Source: Escherichia coli (GTDB lineage: Bacteria > Pseudomonadota > Gammaproteobacteria > Enterobacterales > Enterobacteriaceae). Taken from it: a stretch of DNA of 64,000 nt. Below the pieces are notes generated by a model. That model did no database searches and was not told the origin of the DNA. It worked only from the letters and a program-made list of their open reading frames with translations. The position numbers were made by a program, and so were the translations under genes. The DNA lies in the NCBI RefSeq assembly GCF_050320075.1, contig NZ_CP190022.1; one strand, written 5' to 3'. Shown here one piece after another: positions 1,968 through 8,580 of the stretch; position 1 is the first letter of the stretch; every line of letters starts with the position of its first letter.

Positions 1968-2906
1968 GTGAGTAAGAAGAAAACCACCACGACGCCCACG
2001 CCGCATGATGCCGCGTTCCGGTCGTTCCTGGCGAACCCCGACGTCGCCAGAGATTTTCTGGAACTGCATCTTCCGGCGGAGTACCGGCAGTTGTGCGACC
2101 TGTCCACGCTGAAGCTGGAACCCGCCACCTTTGTTGAGCCGGACCTGCATCAGTACGCCAGCGATATCCTCTGGAGTGTGAAAACCACCGGGGGTGAAGA
2201 CGGCTATATTTATACGCTCATCGAGCACCAGAGCACCGAAAATCTGTACATGCCTTTCCGCATGTTACGTTACAGTGTGGCGGCGATGCAGAGACATCTG
2301 GAGCAGCACAAAACATTGCCACTGGTGATTCCGGTGCTGTTCTATCATGGTGAGCGCAGCCCGTACCCGTACAGCATGAACTGGCTGGACTGTTTTGAGG
2401 ATCCGGCGCTTGCGGCTAAAATATACACAAAGCCGTTTCCGCTGGTTGATATCACTGTCGTTGATGACAATGAAATCATGAACCATCGCCGGATGGCCGC
2501 ACTGACGCTGCTGATGAAGCATATCCGCCATCGTGACATGATGGAGCTGCTGGACAAACTCCCGCAGGTCATGGTGGAAATTTCAGACGAGCAGGTGCGT
2601 GTTCTGATTCATTACATCGTTAACGCAGGGGACTCTGTATCACCGGAATTTATGCGGGCGCTGGCTGAGCGTCTGCCGCAGCATGAGGATAAACTGATGA
2701 CTATTGCCGAACGTCTTGAGCAGCAAGGAATACAGAAAGGAATACAGCAGGGAATACAGCAGGGAATACAGCAGGGAATACAGAAAGGCCGCATGGAGGA
2801 GAAGCAGGATATTGCGCGTCAGCTTCAGAAAACGGGAATGCCATCTGCACAAATCTGTCAGATCACCGGACTTTCCGAAGCTGAACTGAAGAACATCACT
2901 CACTGA
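1968..2906 (+). CDS. Rpn-family recombination-promoting nuclease (YhgA-like, PD-(D/E)XK) with C-terminal GIQQ repeats
   Basis: GTG at 1968 after aggagg RBS; N-terminal PHDAAF(R)SFL...DFLE...HLP and central IEHQS motifs typical of the YhgA/Rpn family; C-terminal QGIQKGIQQGIQQGIQQGIQKG repeat. Confidence 0.7.
   Translation: MSKKKTTTTPTPHDAAFRSFLANPDVARDFLELHLPAEYRQLCDLSTLKLEPATFVEPDLHQYASDILWSVKTTGGEDGYIYTLIEHQSTENLYMPFRMLRYSVAAMQRHLEQHKTLPLVIPVLFYHGERSPYPYSMNWLDCFEDPALAAKIYTKPFPLVDITVVDDNEIMNHRRMAALTLLMKHIRHRDMMELLDKLPQVMVEISDEQVRVLIHYIVNAGDSVSPEFMRALAERLPQHEDKLMTIAERLEQQGIQKGIQQGIQQGIQQGIQKGRMEEKQDIARQLQKTGMPSAQICQITGLSEAELKNITH
2727..2786 (+). repeat. Five tandem 12-bp units (ggaatacagcag / ggaatacagaaa) inside the Rpn gene
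   Basis: Directly visible tandem repeat; encodes (GIQQ/GIQK)x5. Confidence 0.85.
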
Positions 2907-2920
2907 TGAGAACCACAAAG

Positions 2921-2944
2921 CCCGGCAAAATGCCGGGTTTTTTT
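2921..2944 (+). terminator. Rho-independent terminator after the Rpn gene
   Basis: cccggcaaaatgccggg hairpin followed by ttttttt. Confidence 0.6.
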
Positions 2945-2968
2945 GTCAGCAGGAGCAGAGCAAACAGC

Positions 2969-3151
2969 ATGACGATTGCAGAACGTCTTATACAGAAAGG
3001 TTTCGACGAAGGTTTTAAGAAAGGTGCGCTTGAAGTGGCGCGGGAAATAGCCTGCCGGCTTCGGGATATAGGCTGGTCGCCGGAACGGATTCAGGAGGTC
3101 ACGGGACTTTCCGGTGAAGAACTGAAAAAACTGTTTCCTGATGAGCTGTAG
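2969..3151 (+). CDS. Small protein (60 aa) resembling the Rpn C-terminal domain (YpaA-like)
   Basis: ATG at 2969 after aggag; MTIAERLIQKG...EVTGLSGEELKKL parallels the C-terminus of the upstream Rpn protein (MTIAERLEQQG...QITGLSEAELKNI); the longer track ORF from 2906 reads through the terminator and is rejected. Confidence 0.5.
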   Translation: MTIAERLIQKGFDEGFKKGALEVAREIACRLRDIGWSPERIQEVTGLSGEELKKLFPDEL

Positions 3152-3181
3152 CCTGGCATTCTGCCAGGCTGTGAATCACGC

Positions 3182-3433
3182 TCACACATCCTCTGCCGTT
3201 TCCCCCAGTTCATTTTCCAGTCGCCTGATGATATCTGCCTTACGCATCCCCTGCATGTGAGGCAGCAGGTCACGGACTGAAAGAGCCTGGGTGGTCCTCC
3301 AGACGGTGACGTCCACCTGTTCCGCATTTTCCCAGGCGTGCCATGTTCTCTGCGTCACGCCAAATTCTCTGGCCGCTTTTTCGCGTGACCAGAGCATGCT
3401 TTTTCGCCAGATTCGCAGTTCCCAGCCGGTCAT
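3182..3433 (-). CDS. Helix-turn-helix DNA-binding protein (83 aa)
   Basis: EKAAREFGVTQRTWHAWE looks like a helix-turn-helix segment; aaaggtg RBS before the ATG at 3433. Confidence 0.55.
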   Translation of the reverse strand: MTGWELRIWRKSMLWSREKAAREFGVTQRTWHAWENAEQVDVTVWRTTQALSVRDLLPHMQGMRKADIIRRLENELGETAEDV

Positions 3434-3450
3434 AAAACACCTTTGAAAAA

Positions 3451-3532
3451 GTGAAAAAACTTCACTTTATTTTATCATCATAATCATCAAATCAGCGCGA
3501 TAAATAAGTGTGAAAAAGTGAAGAAATTTCAC
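3451..3532. promoter_or_regulatory. Two GTGAA-N5-TTCAC palindromes in the AT-rich promoter region of the HTH gene (putative operators)
   Basis: gtgaaaaaacttcac at 3451-3465 and gtgaagaaatttcac at 3518-3532, both with aaag/cttt flanks. Confidence 0.4.
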
Positions 3533-3631
3533 TTTTTTTTGATTGTGGGTGTCGTGCTGTTTTCTCTGTTTTCACCTGTGCGGGAGTGGTGTGCCAGTGA
3601 CCACCACATGCCATTGTTGTGCCGTCGTTTT

Positions 3632-3990
3632 TCTTCAGTCGCGCCGGATGCGGCGCTCCCTGCACACCTGACGGTGTGTAAGGCCACTGCGCCTGATGGC
3701 GCAGCTGTCTCTGCCTGTCTGCCGCCGCACTGCGGCCCGTTTTCCGCAGACGGACTTTCCGGGGGTACATACACGACCACATCCCGTTTCAGTCGTCCAG
3801 GGGAGAGATGTACCAGCCACAAAACTTTTTGCCGCAGGCGTCAAAAACTTTTGCGTCTGCCCCCGGACAACTGCCCCGTGACGTGGTGAGCGTCCCCCGT
3901 CGGAAAGGTCCACTGCGGGGAAATCCCCGAAGACCCGGACGGCAGAAGGAGCTTCGCTCCTCCGGGAAATGACCTGGCTGACCCGGCAGT
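3632..3990. promoter_or_regulatory. Frpo/ssi-like leading-region repeat, copy 2
   Basis: Imperfect direct repeat of 735-1085, ending just before the start at 4011. Confidence 0.5.
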
Positions 3991-4010
3991 CGTGACGATG
4001 AGGAGACAAT

Positions 4011-4862
4011 GTGATGAATCAGACTTTACCCACTGCTGACCTGAATACTGCCGGCACGACAGATGTTATTCCGTCTGTGGCTATCGACCGCATCATCGCG
4101 CAGCGTAACGAAGGTATTGCACTGTTCATGCAGGCGATGGAATGCCTGGCGACAGCGCGCAGGATTCTGCTCGATGCTTCCGGTGACATTTTTCTCTACG
4201 GGTTTGAAGACTGCGTGACTGATTCCGTTCGTCGCATGGATAAACCGGAAGAAGCGAAAAGGAATATCACCCGTCTTGCCGACCGGAAAATCTGGGACCG
4301 CCTGATGACAGATACGGGCATGTACACCTTCATGAGTTCATGCCAGCGTGATGAGTGGAACAGCCAGCTGATGAGCGACACCTGTCCTGAAATCATCCTG
4401 GACAATGTACTGGCAACATTCCGCCATCTGAATGCCAGCAAAATGCAGACATTTGAACAGGGACTGATTGATGTCTACCGGAAATTGTCATGGGATTACA
4501 GAACCAATAATCCCTGCCGTCTGGGCAAGAGAATCATTATTGAAAACCTGCTGTACCGCTGGAGTAACGGGCGTGTGACGCTGGACTGCAGCGGGCGGGA
4601 GGCACTGGATGACCTGGTACGTCCGTTTTATCTGCTGGATGGGCGCAACATTCCTGACTTCCGGAGCAGCATCGGGGCGCAGTATGGTGAATTTCTCGGG
4701 AACGGCGACAATGTCGGTAAGCTGTTAGAAGGGGAATATTTTACGGTGCGTGGCTACCAGAAAGGGACCGTACACATTGTCTTTAAGCGTTCTGACCTTG
4801 TTGAAAAACTGAATGATATTATTGCACGGCATTATCCTGGTGCATTGCCGCCACGAGTCTGA
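4011..4862 (+). CDS. Hypothetical leading-region protein, 283 aa (family not recognised with confidence)
   Basis: aggag RBS at 4001-4005, GTG 4011 / ATG 4014; preceded by Frpo-like repeat 2; followed by a hairpin with a T-run at 4875-4903. Confidence 0.55.
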   Translation: MMNQTLPTADLNTAGTTDVIPSVAIDRIIAQRNEGIALFMQAMECLATARRILLDASGDIFLYGFEDCVTDSVRRMDKPEEAKRNITRLADRKIWDRLMTDTGMYTFMSSCQRDEWNSQLMSDTCPEIILDNVLATFRHLNASKMQTFEQGLIDVYRKLSWDYRTNNPCRLGKRIIIENLLYRWSNGRVTLDCSGREALDDLVRPFYLLDGRNIPDFRSSIGAQYGEFLGNGDNVGKLLEGEYFTVRGYQKGTVHIVFKRSDLVEKLNDIIARHYPGALPPRV

Positions 4863-4947
4863 TTAAAAAGAAAAGCCCTGGTATTTATGCCGGGGCTTTT
4901 TTTTCTGTAATCATCATAATCTCAGAACATGATGTGACATTGTCACA

Positions 4948-5283
4948 TCAATTGTTGTTCATATCGATGCCATCTTTTCTGCCTGAATCTGTCTTTTTAG
5001 GTGCTGTTTTAGAGGAAGAACGGCGGGATGGTTTTTTCGATTCTGCTTCCCGAATAATGTCACGAAGTGCCTTCTCTCCTACTTCATACCCTGCATTTTT
5101 GAGCGTGTCACGAACATCTGCCAGTGTATAACCCTTTGTCCTTACCAGGACAATGATGTCATCACGAATGGCATCAAGAAAATCACGCAATGTTTTCCGT
5201 TGAGCGGTGAGGTCCGGCAATTCCGATAAGGCAGATTTTGCCAGCTGGATGTCATCATCTGAGTAAAATTTTTTAGAAGCCAT
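4948..5283 (-). CDS. Hypothetical protein (111 aa) with Lys/Ser/Pro-rich C-terminal tail, divergent from nikA
   Basis: ATG at 5283 with ggagag RBS; tail SKKPSRRSSSKTAPKKTDSGRK suggests nucleic-acid binding. Confidence 0.45.
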   Translation of the reverse strand: MASKKFYSDDDIQLAKSALSELPDLTAQRKTLRDFLDAIRDDIIVLVRTKGYTLADVRDTLKNAGYEVGEKALRDIIREAESKKPSRRSSSKTAPKKTDSGRKDGIDMNNN

Positions 5284-5329
5284 TAGCACTTTCTCTCCGT
5301 TTCATGTTGAAGTCTGATTTTATCATCAA

Positions 5330-5515
5330 AAACTGACTCCTGGCAGGGCTGCGCCCTGCCTCTGCCGTCTGCATAAGACTATGATGCACAAAAATAACAG
5401 GCTATAATGGCCTGAAAAACGGGACAGGATGTGGGAATGTCGGACCGCGCACGCGCACTCAGACATTCCCCACCTGGTCAGGGCTTTGCCCCGACACCCC
5501 GGTAAGGAGCAGACC
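5330..5515. other. Origin of transfer (oriT) region, approximate
   Basis: Immediately upstream of nikA; inverted repeats ggcagggc-tgc-gccctgcc (5343-5361) and gggaatgtc...gacattccc (about 5433-5471); nick site not identified. Confidence 0.45.
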
Positions 5516-5848
5516 ATGAGTGAGAAGAAAACCCGAACGGGCAGTGAGAACAGGAAGAGAATTGTAAAATTCACGGCGAGATTCACGGAGGATGAGGCTG
5601 AAATCGTAAGAGAAAAAGCGGAGTCAAGTGGACAGACGGTTTCAACATTTATACGAAGCTCTTCACTGGATAAGGTGGTTAACTGCCGTACTGACGACCG
5701 TATGATTGATGAGATTATGCGTCTTGGCCGCCTTCAGAAGCATCTGTTTGTGGAGGGAAAACGCACTGGTGATAAGGAGTATGCAGAGGTTCTTGTTGCC
5801 ATTACTGAATATGTCAATGCTCTGCGAAGAGACTTAATGGGACGCTGA
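5516..5848 (+). CDS. nikA: NikA relaxosome accessory protein (ribbon-helix-helix)
   Basis: aaggag RBS; MSEKKTRTGSENRKRIVKFTARFTEDEAEIVREKAE matches my memory of R64 NikA; about 110 aa; directly followed by the relaxase. Confidence 0.85.
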   Translation: MSEKKTRTGSENRKRIVKFTARFTEDEAEIVREKAESSGQTVSTFIRSSSLDKVVNCRTDDRMIDEIMRLGRLQKHLFVEGKRTGDKEYAEVLVAITEYVNALRRDLMGR

Positions 5849-5859
5849 GATAACTGCTG

Positions 5860-8580
5860 ATGAATGCCATTATTCCGCACAAAAGACGTGACGGCAGGTC
5901 TTCCTTTGAAGACCTGATTGCGTACACGTCTGTGCGGGATGATGTGCAGGAAAATGAGCTCACAGAAGACAGCGAAATCAAGAGTGATGTCCCTCACCGC
6001 AACCGTTTCAGACGGCTTGTTGATTATGCAACACGCCTGCGTAACGAAAAATTTGTCTCCCTGATTGATGTGATGAAAGACGGCAGTCAGTGGGTAAATT
6101 TCTATGGCGTAACCTGTTTCCATAACTGCAATTCACTGGAAACAGCTGCTGAAGAGATGCAGTACAAGGCGGACAAAGCTGTTTTTTCCCGTAATGATAC
6201 AGACCCCGTTTTCCACTACATTCTTTCCTGGCCTGCGCATGAAAGCCCGCGTCCTGAGCAGCTTTTTGACTGTGTGCGTCACACACTGAAATCTCTTGAA
6301 CTCTCAAAACATCAGTACGTGGCTGCCGTTCATACGGACACGGATAATCTGCATGTGCATGTTGCCGTGAATCGTGTACATCCTGAAACTGGTTATATTA
6401 ACTGGCTTTCCTGGAGCCAGGAAAAACTCAGTCGTGCATGCCGTGAACTTGAACTTAAGCACGGATTTGCGCCGGATAATGGCTGCTTTGTGCATGCACC
6501 CGGCAACCGTATTGTGCGCAAAACAGCGCTGGTACGTGAGCGCCGTAATGCCTGGCGACGCGGGAAAAAGCAGACGTTCAGGGAATATATTGCGCAGATG
6601 TCGATTGCCGGGCTGCGTGAAGAGCCCGCACAGGACTGGTTATCTTTGCATAAACGGCTGGCCAGTGATGGTCTGTATATCACGATGCAGGAAGGGGAAC
6701 TGGTGGTGAAGGATGGCTGGGACAGAGCGCGGGAAGGTGTTGCACTCAGTTCGTTCGGACCGTCATGGACAGCTGAAAAACTGGGGCGGAAACTGGGGGA
6801 ATATCAGCCTGTACCGACAGATATTTTCAGTCAGGTGGGGACACCCGGTCGTTATGATCCGGAAGCCATAAACGTGGATATCCGGCCGGAAAAAGTGGCA
6901 GAAACGGAGAGTCTGAAACAGTACGCCTGTCGTCACTTTGCTGAACGCTTACCGGAAATGGCGCGAAATGGTGAACTGAAAAGTTGCCTGGCTGTACACC
7001 GTACTCTGGCAGAGGCGGGATTATGGATGGGGATTCAGCACGGGCATCTGGTACTGCATGATGGATTTGATAAACAACAGACACCAGTACGTGCAGACAG
7101 TGTGTGGCCGTTAATGACGCTGGATTATATGCAGGATCTGGATGGTGGATGGCACTCTGTACCGAAGGATATTTTTACTCAGGTTATACCCGAAGAACGA
7201 TTCCGGGGACACAGTATTGGCACTCAGGCTGTCAGCGATTACGAATGGTATCGCATGAGGATGGGCACTGGTCCACAGGGTGCCATAAAGCGTGAACTGT
7301 TTTCCGATAAGGAAAGTCTGTGGGGATACGCTCTTATTCAGTGCAGGAGCCAGATTGAAGAGATGATAGCTGGCGGGGATTTCAGCTGGCAGGCATGTCA
7401 TGAGATGTTTGCGCGTAAAGGGCTTATGCTGCAGAAACAGCATCATGGTCTCGTGATTGTGGATGCGTTTAATCATGAACTGACACCGGTGAAGGCCAGC
7501 AGTATCCACCCGGATTTGACGTTATCCCGGGCCGAGCCTCAGGCCGGGCCATTTGAAATTGCGGCTGCAGATATTTTCGAACGGGTGAAGCCTGAATGTC
7601 GCTACAATCCGGAACTTGCTGCCAGTGATGAAGTGGAGCCCGGCTTCCGGCGCGATCCTGAGCTGCGTCGTGAGCGCCGTGAAGCCCGTGCAGCTGCGCG
7701 GGAAGATTTGCGTGCGCGTTATCTTGCATGGAAGGAACACTGGCGTAAACCCGATTTACGTTACGGCGAACGGTTGCGGGAAATTCATGCTGCCTGCCGT
7801 CGTCGCAAGGCTCATATCCGCGTGCAGTTCCGGGATCCACAATTGCGTAAACTGCATTACCATATTGCAGAAGTGCAACGTATGCAGGCGCTGATCAGAC
7901 TGAAGGAAAATGTCAGGGAAGAGCGACTGGCGCTGATGGCGGAGGGTAAGTGGTATCCGTTGTCCTACCGGCAGTGGGTGGAACAACAGGCGGCGCAAGG
8001 CGACAGAGCTGCAGTGTCACAGCTCCGAGGCTGGGATTATCGCGATCGTCGCTCGCGTAATAAGGATAAAAGACGCACAACTAATGCTGATCGTTGTGTC
8101 GTTCTCTGCGAACCCGGAGGAACGCCACTTTTTAATAATGTTGCAAAACTTGAAGCTCGTCTTCAGAAAAATGGAAGTGTTCATTTCAGGGATACGCGGA
8201 CAGGAAAAAATGTCTGTACGGATTACGGAGATCGGGTTGTGTTCTACCATCACACGGACCGAAATGAACTGGCAGAGAAGCTTGATTTAATTGCGCCAGT
8301 TCTGTTCAGCCGCAACGGAAAGCTTGGTTTTGAGCCGGAAGGTTCATACCAGCAGTTTAATGATGTGTTTGCAGAAATGGTGGCCTGGCACAATGCAGCG
8401 GGAATAACCGGAAACGGACACTTCACCATTACTCGTCCGGACGTGGATTTGCACCGTCAACGCAGTGAGCAGTATTACCGGGAATATATCAGACAGCAGA
8501 CCCGTTTATCGGAGAGCCATGATGATAATTATACGTTACGGCAGGAGAAAACATGGGAGCCACCATCACCTGGAATGTAA
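5860..8580 (+). CDS. nikB: NikB relaxase (MOBP family)
   Basis: 906 aa, start MNAIIPHKRRDG; relaxase His motif region HTDTDNLHVHVAVNRV; size and position as in R64. Confidence 0.85.
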   Translation: MNAIIPHKRRDGRSSFEDLIAYTSVRDDVQENELTEDSEIKSDVPHRNRFRRLVDYATRLRNEKFVSLIDVMKDGSQWVNFYGVTCFHNCNSLETAAEEMQYKADKAVFSRNDTDPVFHYILSWPAHESPRPEQLFDCVRHTLKSLELSKHQYVAAVHTDTDNLHVHVAVNRVHPETGYINWLSWSQEKLSRACRELELKHGFAPDNGCFVHAPGNRIVRKTALVRERRNAWRRGKKQTFREYIAQMSIAGLREEPAQDWLSLHKRLASDGLYITMQEGELVVKDGWDRAREGVALSSFGPSWTAEKLGRKLGEYQPVPTDIFSQVGTPGRYDPEAINVDIRPEKVAETESLKQYACRHFAERLPEMARNGELKSCLAVHRTLAEAGLWMGIQHGHLVLHDGFDKQQTPVRADSVWPLMTLDYMQDLDGGWHSVPKDIFTQVIPEERFRGHSIGTQAVSDYEWYRMRMGTGPQGAIKRELFSDKESLWGYALIQCRSQIEEMIAGGDFSWQACHEMFARKGLMLQKQHHGLVIVDAFNHELTPVKASSIHPDLTLSRAEPQAGPFEIAAADIFERVKPECRYNPELAASDEVEPGFRRDPELRRERREARAAAREDLRARYLAWKEHWRKPDLRYGERLREIHAACRRRKAHIRVQFRDPQLRKLHYHIAEVQRMQALIRLKENVREERLALMAEGKWYPLSYRQWVEQQAAQGDRAAVSQLRGWDYRDRRSRNKDKRRTTNADRCVVLCEPGGTPLFNNVAKLEARLQKNGSVHFRDTRTGKNVCTDYGDRVVFYHHTDRNELAEKLDLIAPVLFSRNGKLGFEPEGSYQQFNDVFAEMVAWHNAAGITGNGHFTITRPDVDLHRQRSEQYYREYIRQQTRLSESHDDNYTLRQEKTWEPPSPGM

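Follow-up and report, generated by a model that had tools for sequence, protein, structure and literature searches.

The ygeA gene and its product

We analysed a 64,000-nucleotide (64-kb) stretch of Escherichia coli DNA (contig NZ_CP190022.1 of assembly GCF_050320075.1), referred to below as the window, which shares 99.8% identity with NZ_MG825371.1, an E. coli plasmid (typed IncK2/Z, MOBP, MPF_I) and carries in its leading region the small gene ygeA, preceded by two near-identical palindromes that are candidate operators of the encoded protein. The gene and the elements predicted upstream of it are the following.

3182..3433, minus strand: ygeA coding sequence, an 83-aa XRE-type helix-turn-helix (HTH) protein (open reading frame and translation)
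3438..3443, minus strand: Shine-Dalgarno-like AAGGTG, 4 nt 5' of the ygeA ATG, read from the sequence and kept among I-complex copies
3449..3467, not stranded: proximal predicted operator O1, AAGTGAA-aaaac-TTCACTT, centre 25 nt 5' of the ATG, invariant among I-complex copies
3469..3477, minus strand: predicted extended -10 element of ygeA, TGaTAAAAT, of which TAnAAT is conserved 5' of the proximal site family-wide
3516..3534, not stranded: distal predicted operator O2, AAGTGAA-gaaat-TTCACTT, centre 67 bp upstream of O1, invariant among I-complex copies

The product begins MTGWELRIWRK (MTGWELRIWRKSMLWSREKAAREFGVTQRTWHAWENAEQV...) and is identical to WP_000148285.1 of pESBL-EA11; IncI1 records label the gene either 'ygeA' or 'HTH transcriptional regulator', and the HTH-regulator annotation is found in ~2000 plasmid records. 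A preliminary description of this DNA had read the gene as an 83-aa HTH protein on the minus strand, which is borne out by the open reading frame at 3182..3433, by the HTH_31 and HTH_3 matches of the family and by an AlphaFold2 model. The window protein itself scores under the curated Pfam cut-offs (HTH_31, E 7e-5 and 23.5 bits for a cut-off of 27; HTH_3, E 7e-3 and 16.8 bits for a cut-off of 23), while among the 35 aligned family members 33 match HTH_31, 28 match HTH_3 (E < 0.01; best E 1e-7 to 9e-9) and none matches DUF1870. The model, computed from the family alignment (pLDDT 90.7), has five helices and displays the XRE-type five-helix bundle in which helix 2-turn-helix 3 is the DNA-reading unit, here helix 2 (residues 17-24) and helix 3 (28-35). 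The closest solved structures are, in rank order, NE0471, Aca10, SO3848, HigA2 and YdiL, the similarity being confined to the DNA-binding part.

A search across 1.8 billion representative proteins retrieved 79 YgeA relatives sharing the N-terminus MTG[YFW]EL[RK]LWR..W...AAEELGVSLRTYK.YE, and because MTGxELRxWR is conserved family-wide the start codon of ygeA can be regarded as fixed. Compared with its counterpart from a plasmid of Salmonella Gaminara (L002), with which it shares 79% nucleotide identity, the gene has a dN/dS of 0.066 at a dS of 1.29, i.e., with synonymous sites near saturation, and its reading frame is therefore under strong purifying selection.

Paired palindromes upstream of ygeA

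The sequence GTGAANNNNNTTCAC (GTGAA-N5-TTCAC) is present in exactly two copies in the window, at 3451-3465 and 3518-3532, and thus agrees with the two near-identical 15-bp palindromes, 67 bp apart from start to start, that had been noticed previously. Dinucleotide shuffles contained a mean of 0.04 such copies per window, and at least two copies were obtained in 0 of 100. The complete symmetric site extends over 19-21 bp (AAAGTGAA-N5-TTCACTTT), and a 39-nt direct repeat (3435-3473 and 3502-3540; 82% identical) encloses both palindromes. The description of this region as AT-rich also holds, the 107 bp from the ygeA ATG to the end of the second repeat (3434-3540) having 25% G+C, as compared with 56% in the gene and 52% in the window.

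A search for the palindrome elsewhere on the plasmid, which the preliminary description had proposed, returned no further copy: beyond O1 and O2, AGTGAA-N5-TTCACT has no match at 0-1 mismatch in the window or in the other 28 kb of NZ_MG825371.1. Matches at two mismatches have the GTG/CAC core broken, and the window holds 3 (two being O1 and O2 themselves) against 2.16 expected; in L038 there are 4 against 0.84 expected, a number reached by 2 of 100 shuffles. Neither rate is clearly above chance. Because there is no credible further site on the plasmid, any action of YgeA through the AAGTGAA-N5-TTCACTT motif would be local.

An extra TGAA/GTGAA half-site (3443-3447 and 3510-3514) stands 8 bp to the left of each palindrome, within the 39-nt direct repeat. 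It was considered as part of the operator and dropped, its distance being 10 bp in pESBL and the half-site being absent from the Salmonella copy L002; it is probably non-functional.

Conservation of the sites across homologous loci

The comparison covered 37 loci with YgeA homologues of 30-99% identity, 30 of which were added by scanning one genome per species. Within 150 nt upstream of the gene, AAGTG-N9-CACTT (at most one mismatch) has 47 occurrences, compared with 10 in the other 239 kb, i.e., 9.6 per kb against 0.042 per kb (~230-fold; Fisher p = 4e-70), with at least one site in 28 of the 37 loci. When 31 loci are anchored on the proximal site, its centre in most of them falls 22-26 nt 5' of the ATG, and a TAnAAT hexamer (TAAAAT, TAGAAT, TAATAT, CATAAT) ends at, or one base before, its first A. 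Both palindromes are unchanged in pESBL, in one Escherichia contig and in the Salmonella plasmid L002, where the inter-operator spacer is unrelated to that of the window and yet the 67-bp spacing is retained. The same site arrangement accompanies homologues of 34-52% identity on plasmids of Pectobacterium, Klebsiella, Leclercia, Edwardsiella and Enterobacter. Loss of the palindromes from related plasmids that keep the gene, which had been named as an observation that would speak against an operator role, was seen neither in the I-complex copies nor in most relatives.

The arms of the palindromes covary. AGTGAA-N5-TTCACT in the window becomes AGTGCA-N5-TGCACT in the plasmids of the five genera just named; L031 has GTGAC/GTCAC arms, L034 and L036 have imperfect versions, L002 mixes GTGAA and GTGTA half-sites, and in a lytic Klebsiella phage hybrid GTGAA/TGCAC sites flank a TATAAT. 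In the recognition helix, Q28L is the sole difference between the window protein and that of L002, and it coincides with the half-site change, which is suggestive of a link to binding specificity.

A distal site is present in 17 loci, at a centre-to-centre distance of 45 bp in one, 55-57 bp in most, 64 bp in one and 67 bp in the I-complex. The spacings of 45, 56 and 67 bp differ by 11-bp steps and, given the helical repeat of ~11.2 bp known from in-vivo looping measurements, would correspond to 4, 5 and 6 turns. Such stepped spacing would fit dimers bound on one face of the helix and in mutual contact, a pattern that we treat as a lead and not as a result, because the loci are partly related.

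Four Buttiauxella loci (L017, L018, L019 and L022) carry AAGTGCA-N5-TG(C/G)CCTT sites ~24 and 79 nt upstream of the gene, 55 bp apart, and a third, imperfect site 56 bp farther upstream (~135 nt), an arrangement that would be consistent with phased binding of several dimers. Half of the 10 matches counted outside the upstream regions are themselves palindromes, four of them perfect and one with one mismatch, at distances of 845-1121 bp upstream of the HTH start. In L011 (Yersinia ruckeri; 3157-4001), a higBA-like toxin-antitoxin cassette of ~790 bp with its own TTCGTACTSAGTACGAA palindromes splits the two operators; the distal one remains perfect at a distance of 845 bp. This offset of 845 bp recurs, along with the TTCGTACTSAGTACGAA palindromes, in L014 (Rahnella) and L032 (Enterobacter asburiae), and its identity suggests the same insertion there. 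The other displaced sites lie at -1121 in L033 (perfect) and at -970 in L026 (one mismatch).

Predicted promoter and proposed autoregulation

The sequence TGATA(A/G)AAT beside the proximal palindrome is invariant in the I-complex copies, the diverged L002 included. From it, the ygeA transcript would be expected to begin near 3462, within the left arm of O1, and to have a leader of ~29 nt, so that YgeA bound to O1 would span about -5 to +14, a classic position for blocking RNA polymerase, while the centre of O2 falls at about -62 from the predicted start. A built-in consensus promoter scan gave just a weak match on the plus strand. Control at the RNA level, in the manner of the binding of Aca2 to a hairpin in the 5' untranslated region, was judged unlikely: since the predicted start already falls within the left arm of O1, the ygeA mRNA would lack a complete O1 stem.

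On these grounds YgeA is probably a dimeric XRE-type negative autoregulator that acts through the two 19-bp palindromes before its own gene. A YgeA dimer would bind the AAGTGAA-N5-TTCACTT sites and keep its own transcription low and steady; on O1, over the predicted start just after TGaTAAAAT, it would block RNA polymerase, and a second dimer on O2, 67 bp upstream (six turns at ~11.2 bp), would probably cooperate with the first by contact. The earlier suggestion of an autoregulated repressor with its own paired operators is strengthened by the conserved position of the sites, their contact with the -10 element, the covariation of their arms and their constancy amid diverged DNA; we infer the binding and the sign of the regulation, together with dimer formation, the transcription start, cooperativity and the timing of expression.

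Comparison with known regulators

Among known systems the closest, in the HTH part only, is Aca2 of Pectobacterium phage ZF40 (DUF1870/YdiL group; PDB 7vjo, 7ezy), an anti-CRISPR-associated dimeric HTH protein that represses its own promoter through two similar inverted repeats, the first at the promoter, the second immediately downstream (PMC6765145). Its N-terminus (MTxxEL..R) resembles that of YgeA, which has an Aca2-type N-terminal HTH domain, and both proteins are encoded on mobile elements beside genes that act early after entry. However, Aca2 has 116-125 aa with a C-terminal alpha/beta dimerisation domain, whereas YgeA has 83 aa with two C-terminal helices and no strands, and alignments of the two end at residue 52-66. 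The operators are alike in architecture but not in sequence (TTCG-N6/8-CGAA for Aca2, PMC6765145; AAGTG-N9-CACTT for YgeA), and the YgeA-type sites, unlike those of Aca2, lie 45-67 bp apart with the distal one upstream of the core promoter. Finally, Aca2 is the last gene of an acr operon, whereas ygeA is monocistronic and antisense to its neighbours, with no upstream gene on its own strand. Membership of the Aca2/DUF1870 family was consequently rejected, as YgeA has neither the dimerisation domain nor a DUF1870 match, neither an acr operon nor the same operator core: its DNA-binding domain is Aca2-like, and the protein is outside the Aca2 family.

Restriction-modification C proteins (C.AhdI, C.Esp1396I, C.BclI) are XRE-type dimers of ~80 aa that use paired palindromic sites for concentration-dependent autoregulation. 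They match the predicted arrangement of YgeA in the size and type of the protein and in the paired palindromes before the protein's own gene, but C-boxes are adjacent within ~35 bp and serve a delayed endonuclease switch, whereas the ygeA sites are 67 bp apart and no co-directional gene follows; the structural similarity of YgeA to C proteins is also lower than to Aca2. A C protein was rejected on account of this spacing and of the lack of an adjacent endonuclease or co-directional downstream gene. Distant homologues on IncL plasmids do precede an Mrr-like nuclease gene, but they form a different branch. The Cro and CI repressors of lambda, 434 and P22 are likewise HTH dimers with palindromic operators at their own promoter and cooperation between separate sites; YgeA differs from them in its plasmid leading-region context, and it lacks a lysis-lysogeny switch, a second, divergent regulator gene and a cleavable C-terminal domain.

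YggA of R64 and Orf35 of pCTX-M3 are encoded, like YgeA, by a small antisense gene of the leading region, located beside oriT, but they are unrelated to YgeA, have no recognised DNA-binding motif and correspond to a separate gene here (4948-5289). Deletion of orf35, the IncM yggA homologue, increased nikA, nikB and traH transcripts and mobilisation (PMC6112013).

Distribution and genetic neighbourhood

The gene and its promoter region are matched at 95% identity or more by ~2000 plasmid records, mostly of the I-complex. Of 5426 complete E. coli genomes, 1161 carry the 95-nt operator region, 1227 of its 1241 places being on plasmids, and YgeA relatives are found in ~3800 plasmid records and a few phages.

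From left to right in the window, ardA (ending at 380) is followed by the first Frpo/ssi-like repeat, a pair of small genes, the Rpn nuclease gene (1911-2906) and a further small gene similar to the C-terminus of Rpn. Next come ygeA, on the minus strand, and the palindromes; beyond these lie the second Frpo/ssi-like repeat, a DUF4942 gene (4011-4862), yggA, likewise on the minus strand, oriT, nikA and nikB. The features surrounding ygeA are as follows.

3149..3171, not stranded: G+C-rich stem-loop AGCCTGGCA-ttc-TGCCAGGCT between the ygeA stop and that of the convergent small gene, -17 kcal/mol (as RNA), without a U tract
3638..3960, plus strand: Frpo/ssi-like repeat 2, a neighbouring element distinct from the regulator, located before the DUF4942 gene and 96-97% identical to the copy at 734-977
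4948-5289, minus strand: yggA, annotated MobC-like, adjoining oriT, the second antisense gene of the early leading region

This order agrees with the position assigned to ygeA earlier, between the Rpn gene (1911-2906) and repeat 2 (homology from ~3638). The statement that no other gene of the early leading region is on the minus strand is incorrect, since yggA (4948-5289) has this orientation too.

No co-directional partner open reading frame accompanies ygeA in the window or in eight annotated relatives, and the gene is monocistronic. In every close relative examined, the HTH gene converges on the end of one leading-region operon (stops ~20-40 bp apart) and diverges from the next, and the stem-loop at 3149..3171 is a possible bidirectional 3'-end hairpin. 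The HTH/DUF4942 neighbourhood is retained in Salmonella and Pectobacterium plasmids; over the family, the genes on the divergent side vary by lineage (DUF4942, DUF5983, DUF1419, MobC-like). In L044 (IncL, pOXA-48-type; 4043-6056), L040 and L041, the HTH gene lies within operons with an Mrr-like or PLD-type nuclease gene, an arrangement suggesting that the HTH is put to another, possibly defence-related, use there.

Several side observations concern the Rpn unit. The small gene at 2969-3151 on the plus strand, within an open reading frame of 2906-3151, matches only the C-terminal end of the Rpn model (TIGR01784 215-273, E 4.8e-7). Short C-terminal Rpn products are described as inhibiting the full-length toxic nuclease, and the small gene may be such a separately encoded product; the ygeA transcript would run antisense to it. 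Directly 3' of the Rpn stop, a stem-loop CCCGGCAAAATGCCGGG followed by TTTTTTT (2921-2945, plus strand), of which the terminator scan called the minus-strand reading only, looks like the intrinsic terminator of the Rpn unit, and because of it the small gene is taken to start at the ATG at 2969 and not at 2906. The Rpn protein contains QGIQ-type repeats (QQGIQKGIQQGIQQGIQQGIQKG) that derive from a short tandem DNA repeat (2700-2800, plus strand), whose copy number may vary between plasmids. An 88-aa gene at 1637-1903 on the plus strand is, by position and length, the counterpart of locus 00810 of the I-complex plasmid pMS7163B, the overexpression of which causes a severe growth defect (PMC10286972). 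A search of 2800-4100 against Rfam gave only two chance-level matches.

Single-strand element and predicted timing of expression

On the transferred (minus) strand, 3434-3960 folds at -125 kcal/mol (z = -8.2). A structured single-strand element divergent of the HTH gene is present in three diverged lineages, with z of -8.2 in the window and -6.0 in L006 and L007. In the window, O2 lies ~100 bp from the start of repeat 2 and ~220 bp from the main hairpin of the repeat. Plus-sense leading genes (ardA and others) are templated by the transferred strand; the template strand of ygeA is absent from it, so that expression of ygeA in a new host would have to await synthesis of the second strand, a dependence that we infer from the known polarity of transfer. 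The pESBL conjugation transcriptome paper reports that, in IncI1 plasmids, Frpo/ssi-type elements drive an early burst of leading-gene expression from the transferred single strand (PMC12672017).

Two long open reading frames, 3518-3889 on the plus and 3492-3782 on the minus strand, cross the ssi repeat and start inside O2, and RefSeq annotates a 'hypothetical protein' over this stretch; they are probably not genes, because the same reading frames recur in the other repeat copy. In several plasmids outside the I-complex (L005, L006, L007, L010, L012, L015 and L016), a common motif ...GCGAAGTGCAGGCGACGACCCGGC...GGGGAGCCGAAGG... is found upstream of the operators, ending 8-70 nt from the distal one inside strongly folding single-strand DNA, and it may represent another class of single-strand promoter.

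Evidence against autoregulation and alternative explanations

Several results weigh against the proposed autoregulation. A literature search found no functional study of IncI1 ygeA and no binding, footprint, transcription-start or expression data; the text of the pESBL conjugation transcriptome paper does not mention ygeA (PMC12672017), and the YgeA of F-plasmid papers, set aside here, is another gene of the same name. A position weight matrix promoter scan of both strands gave best scores of ~8-9, compared with 7.05 (median) and 10.5 (95th percentile) in random 261-nt stretches, and no conserved -35 element was found across the loci anchored on the proximal site; because the scan scores are at background, the promoter assignment rests on the conservation of TAnAAT across the family. 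Three roles of the distal site are conceivable, namely cooperation in repression, activation, and the control of a divergent promoter; the position of O2 (~ -62) would suit activation equally well. The compared loci are partly kin, and their spacing pattern has to be read accordingly. In a transposon screen of pMS7163B, locus 00770 (252 nt, opposite strand) has as neighbours the 849-nt locus 00760, at 579 nt, and locus 00780, at 30 nt; position, strand and length match it to ygeA. Insertions in it (log2MPM 13.07) are well tolerated and slightly enriched after conjugation (log2FC +1.63) (PMC10286972); the gene is unneeded for maintenance or surface mating in the laboratory, where its loss has no strong phenotype. 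Finally, a repressor with itself as its only target lacks an obvious use, and a further target or function must exist.

An alternative that we consider rather unlikely, although more probable than the others weighed here, is that YgeA mainly represses its neighbours, O2 or both sites controlling a rightward double-strand promoter that reads through the second ssi repeat into the DUF4942 gene. YgeA would then switch off, in the manner of an Aca protein, an establishment or anti-defence operon after the plasmid has become double-stranded, with autoregulation as a secondary effect. The back-to-back arrangement of the HTH gene and a structured single-strand element in three diverged lineages and the HTH/DUF4942 neighbourhood kept in Salmonella and Pectobacterium plasmids fit this, as does the job done by its structural relative Aca2. 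Other leading-region genes harm the host when overexpressed (PMC10286972), so that control of the leading region matters in general. A weak rightward promoter-like sequence, GTGAAA-16-TATCAT (3451-3478), does overlap O1, but the match is at background level, and in the family alignment anchored on the distal site no divergent-strand -10-like hexamer recurs at a fixed distance, which disfavours a family-wide divergent promoter under distal-site control. The genes on the divergent side, moreover, are not the same from lineage to lineage, O2 is distant from both the ssi repeat and its main hairpin, and the tolerance of insertions in the gene implies that no lethal gene is derepressed.

That the palindromes serve another protein of the host or the plasmid, with YgeA acting elsewhere, e.g., on chromosomal genes of the recipient, is improbable: the lack of a further operator on the plasmid leaves room for outside targets, and the window YgeA scores under the Pfam cut-offs, but site and gene co-occur in plasmids of many genera and in a phage with ~230-fold enrichment, half-site changes follow the protein lineage, and Q28L accompanies such a change. 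Even less credit is due to the idea that the palindromes work as nucleic-acid hairpins, either weak plus-strand terminators or structural parts of the single-strand initiation region. Each can fold into a stem of 8-11 bp with a 5-nt loop (-6.8 and -9.4 kcal/mol), and eight T follow O2 on the plus strand; however, the stems are weak and A+T-rich with two G:C pairs, the terminator scan calls neither palindrome, and the flanks are symmetric (AAA...TTT) rather than one-sided. The palindromes also lie outside the part of the ssi element repeated at 734-977, keep a fixed distance to the -10 element and the ATG, and accompany the HTH gene into unrelated contexts, including the lytic Klebsiella phage. 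We give the least weight of all to YgeA being an orphan type II antitoxin akin to HigA, MqsA or HipB, in spite of weak MqsA and HipB model matches and of HigA2 and HipB among its structural neighbours, since those matches are limited to the generic HTH part and every close relative examined is monocistronic, with a convergent gene and no co-directional partner. Membership of these XRE antitoxins was rejected, no partner reading frame being found on the same strand in the window or in the eight relatives.

Implications for plasmid establishment

Under the autoregulation that we favour, YgeA would be made in a new host only after synthesis of the complementary strand and would act locally, at the junction of the Rpn transcription unit and the unit formed by the second ssi repeat and the DUF4942 gene. 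It is then a real but conventional regulator, an uncharacterised member of a familiar kind. More than routine are its location in the leading region, its antisense orientation, its back-to-back position with a single-strand promoter, its predicted second-strand dependence and its wide spread. A more far-reaching proposal, which we regard as doubtful, is that YgeA-type proteins are dedicated second-strand-dependent regulators of plasmid establishment, whose phased operators between two leading units would end or insulate the early establishment and anti-defence burst, making them a plasmid counterpart of the phage Aca switch that is timed by the strandedness of the DNA and not by operon order.

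The leading region is recognised as the seat of plasmid genes that defeat host defences on entry, and what limits their burst is only partly understood. YgeA is among the few regulators encoded there, and its carriers include major resistance plasmids. AAGTG-N9-CACTT before a protein beginning MTGxELRLWR provides a recognition signature for the module in other plasmids and phages. If YgeA regulates only itself, the present analysis amounts to a routine refinement of annotation, now with a defined operator. If YgeA indeed controls its neighbours or marks the switch from single-stranded to double-stranded DNA, it would offer a simple handle on the timing of plasmid establishment.

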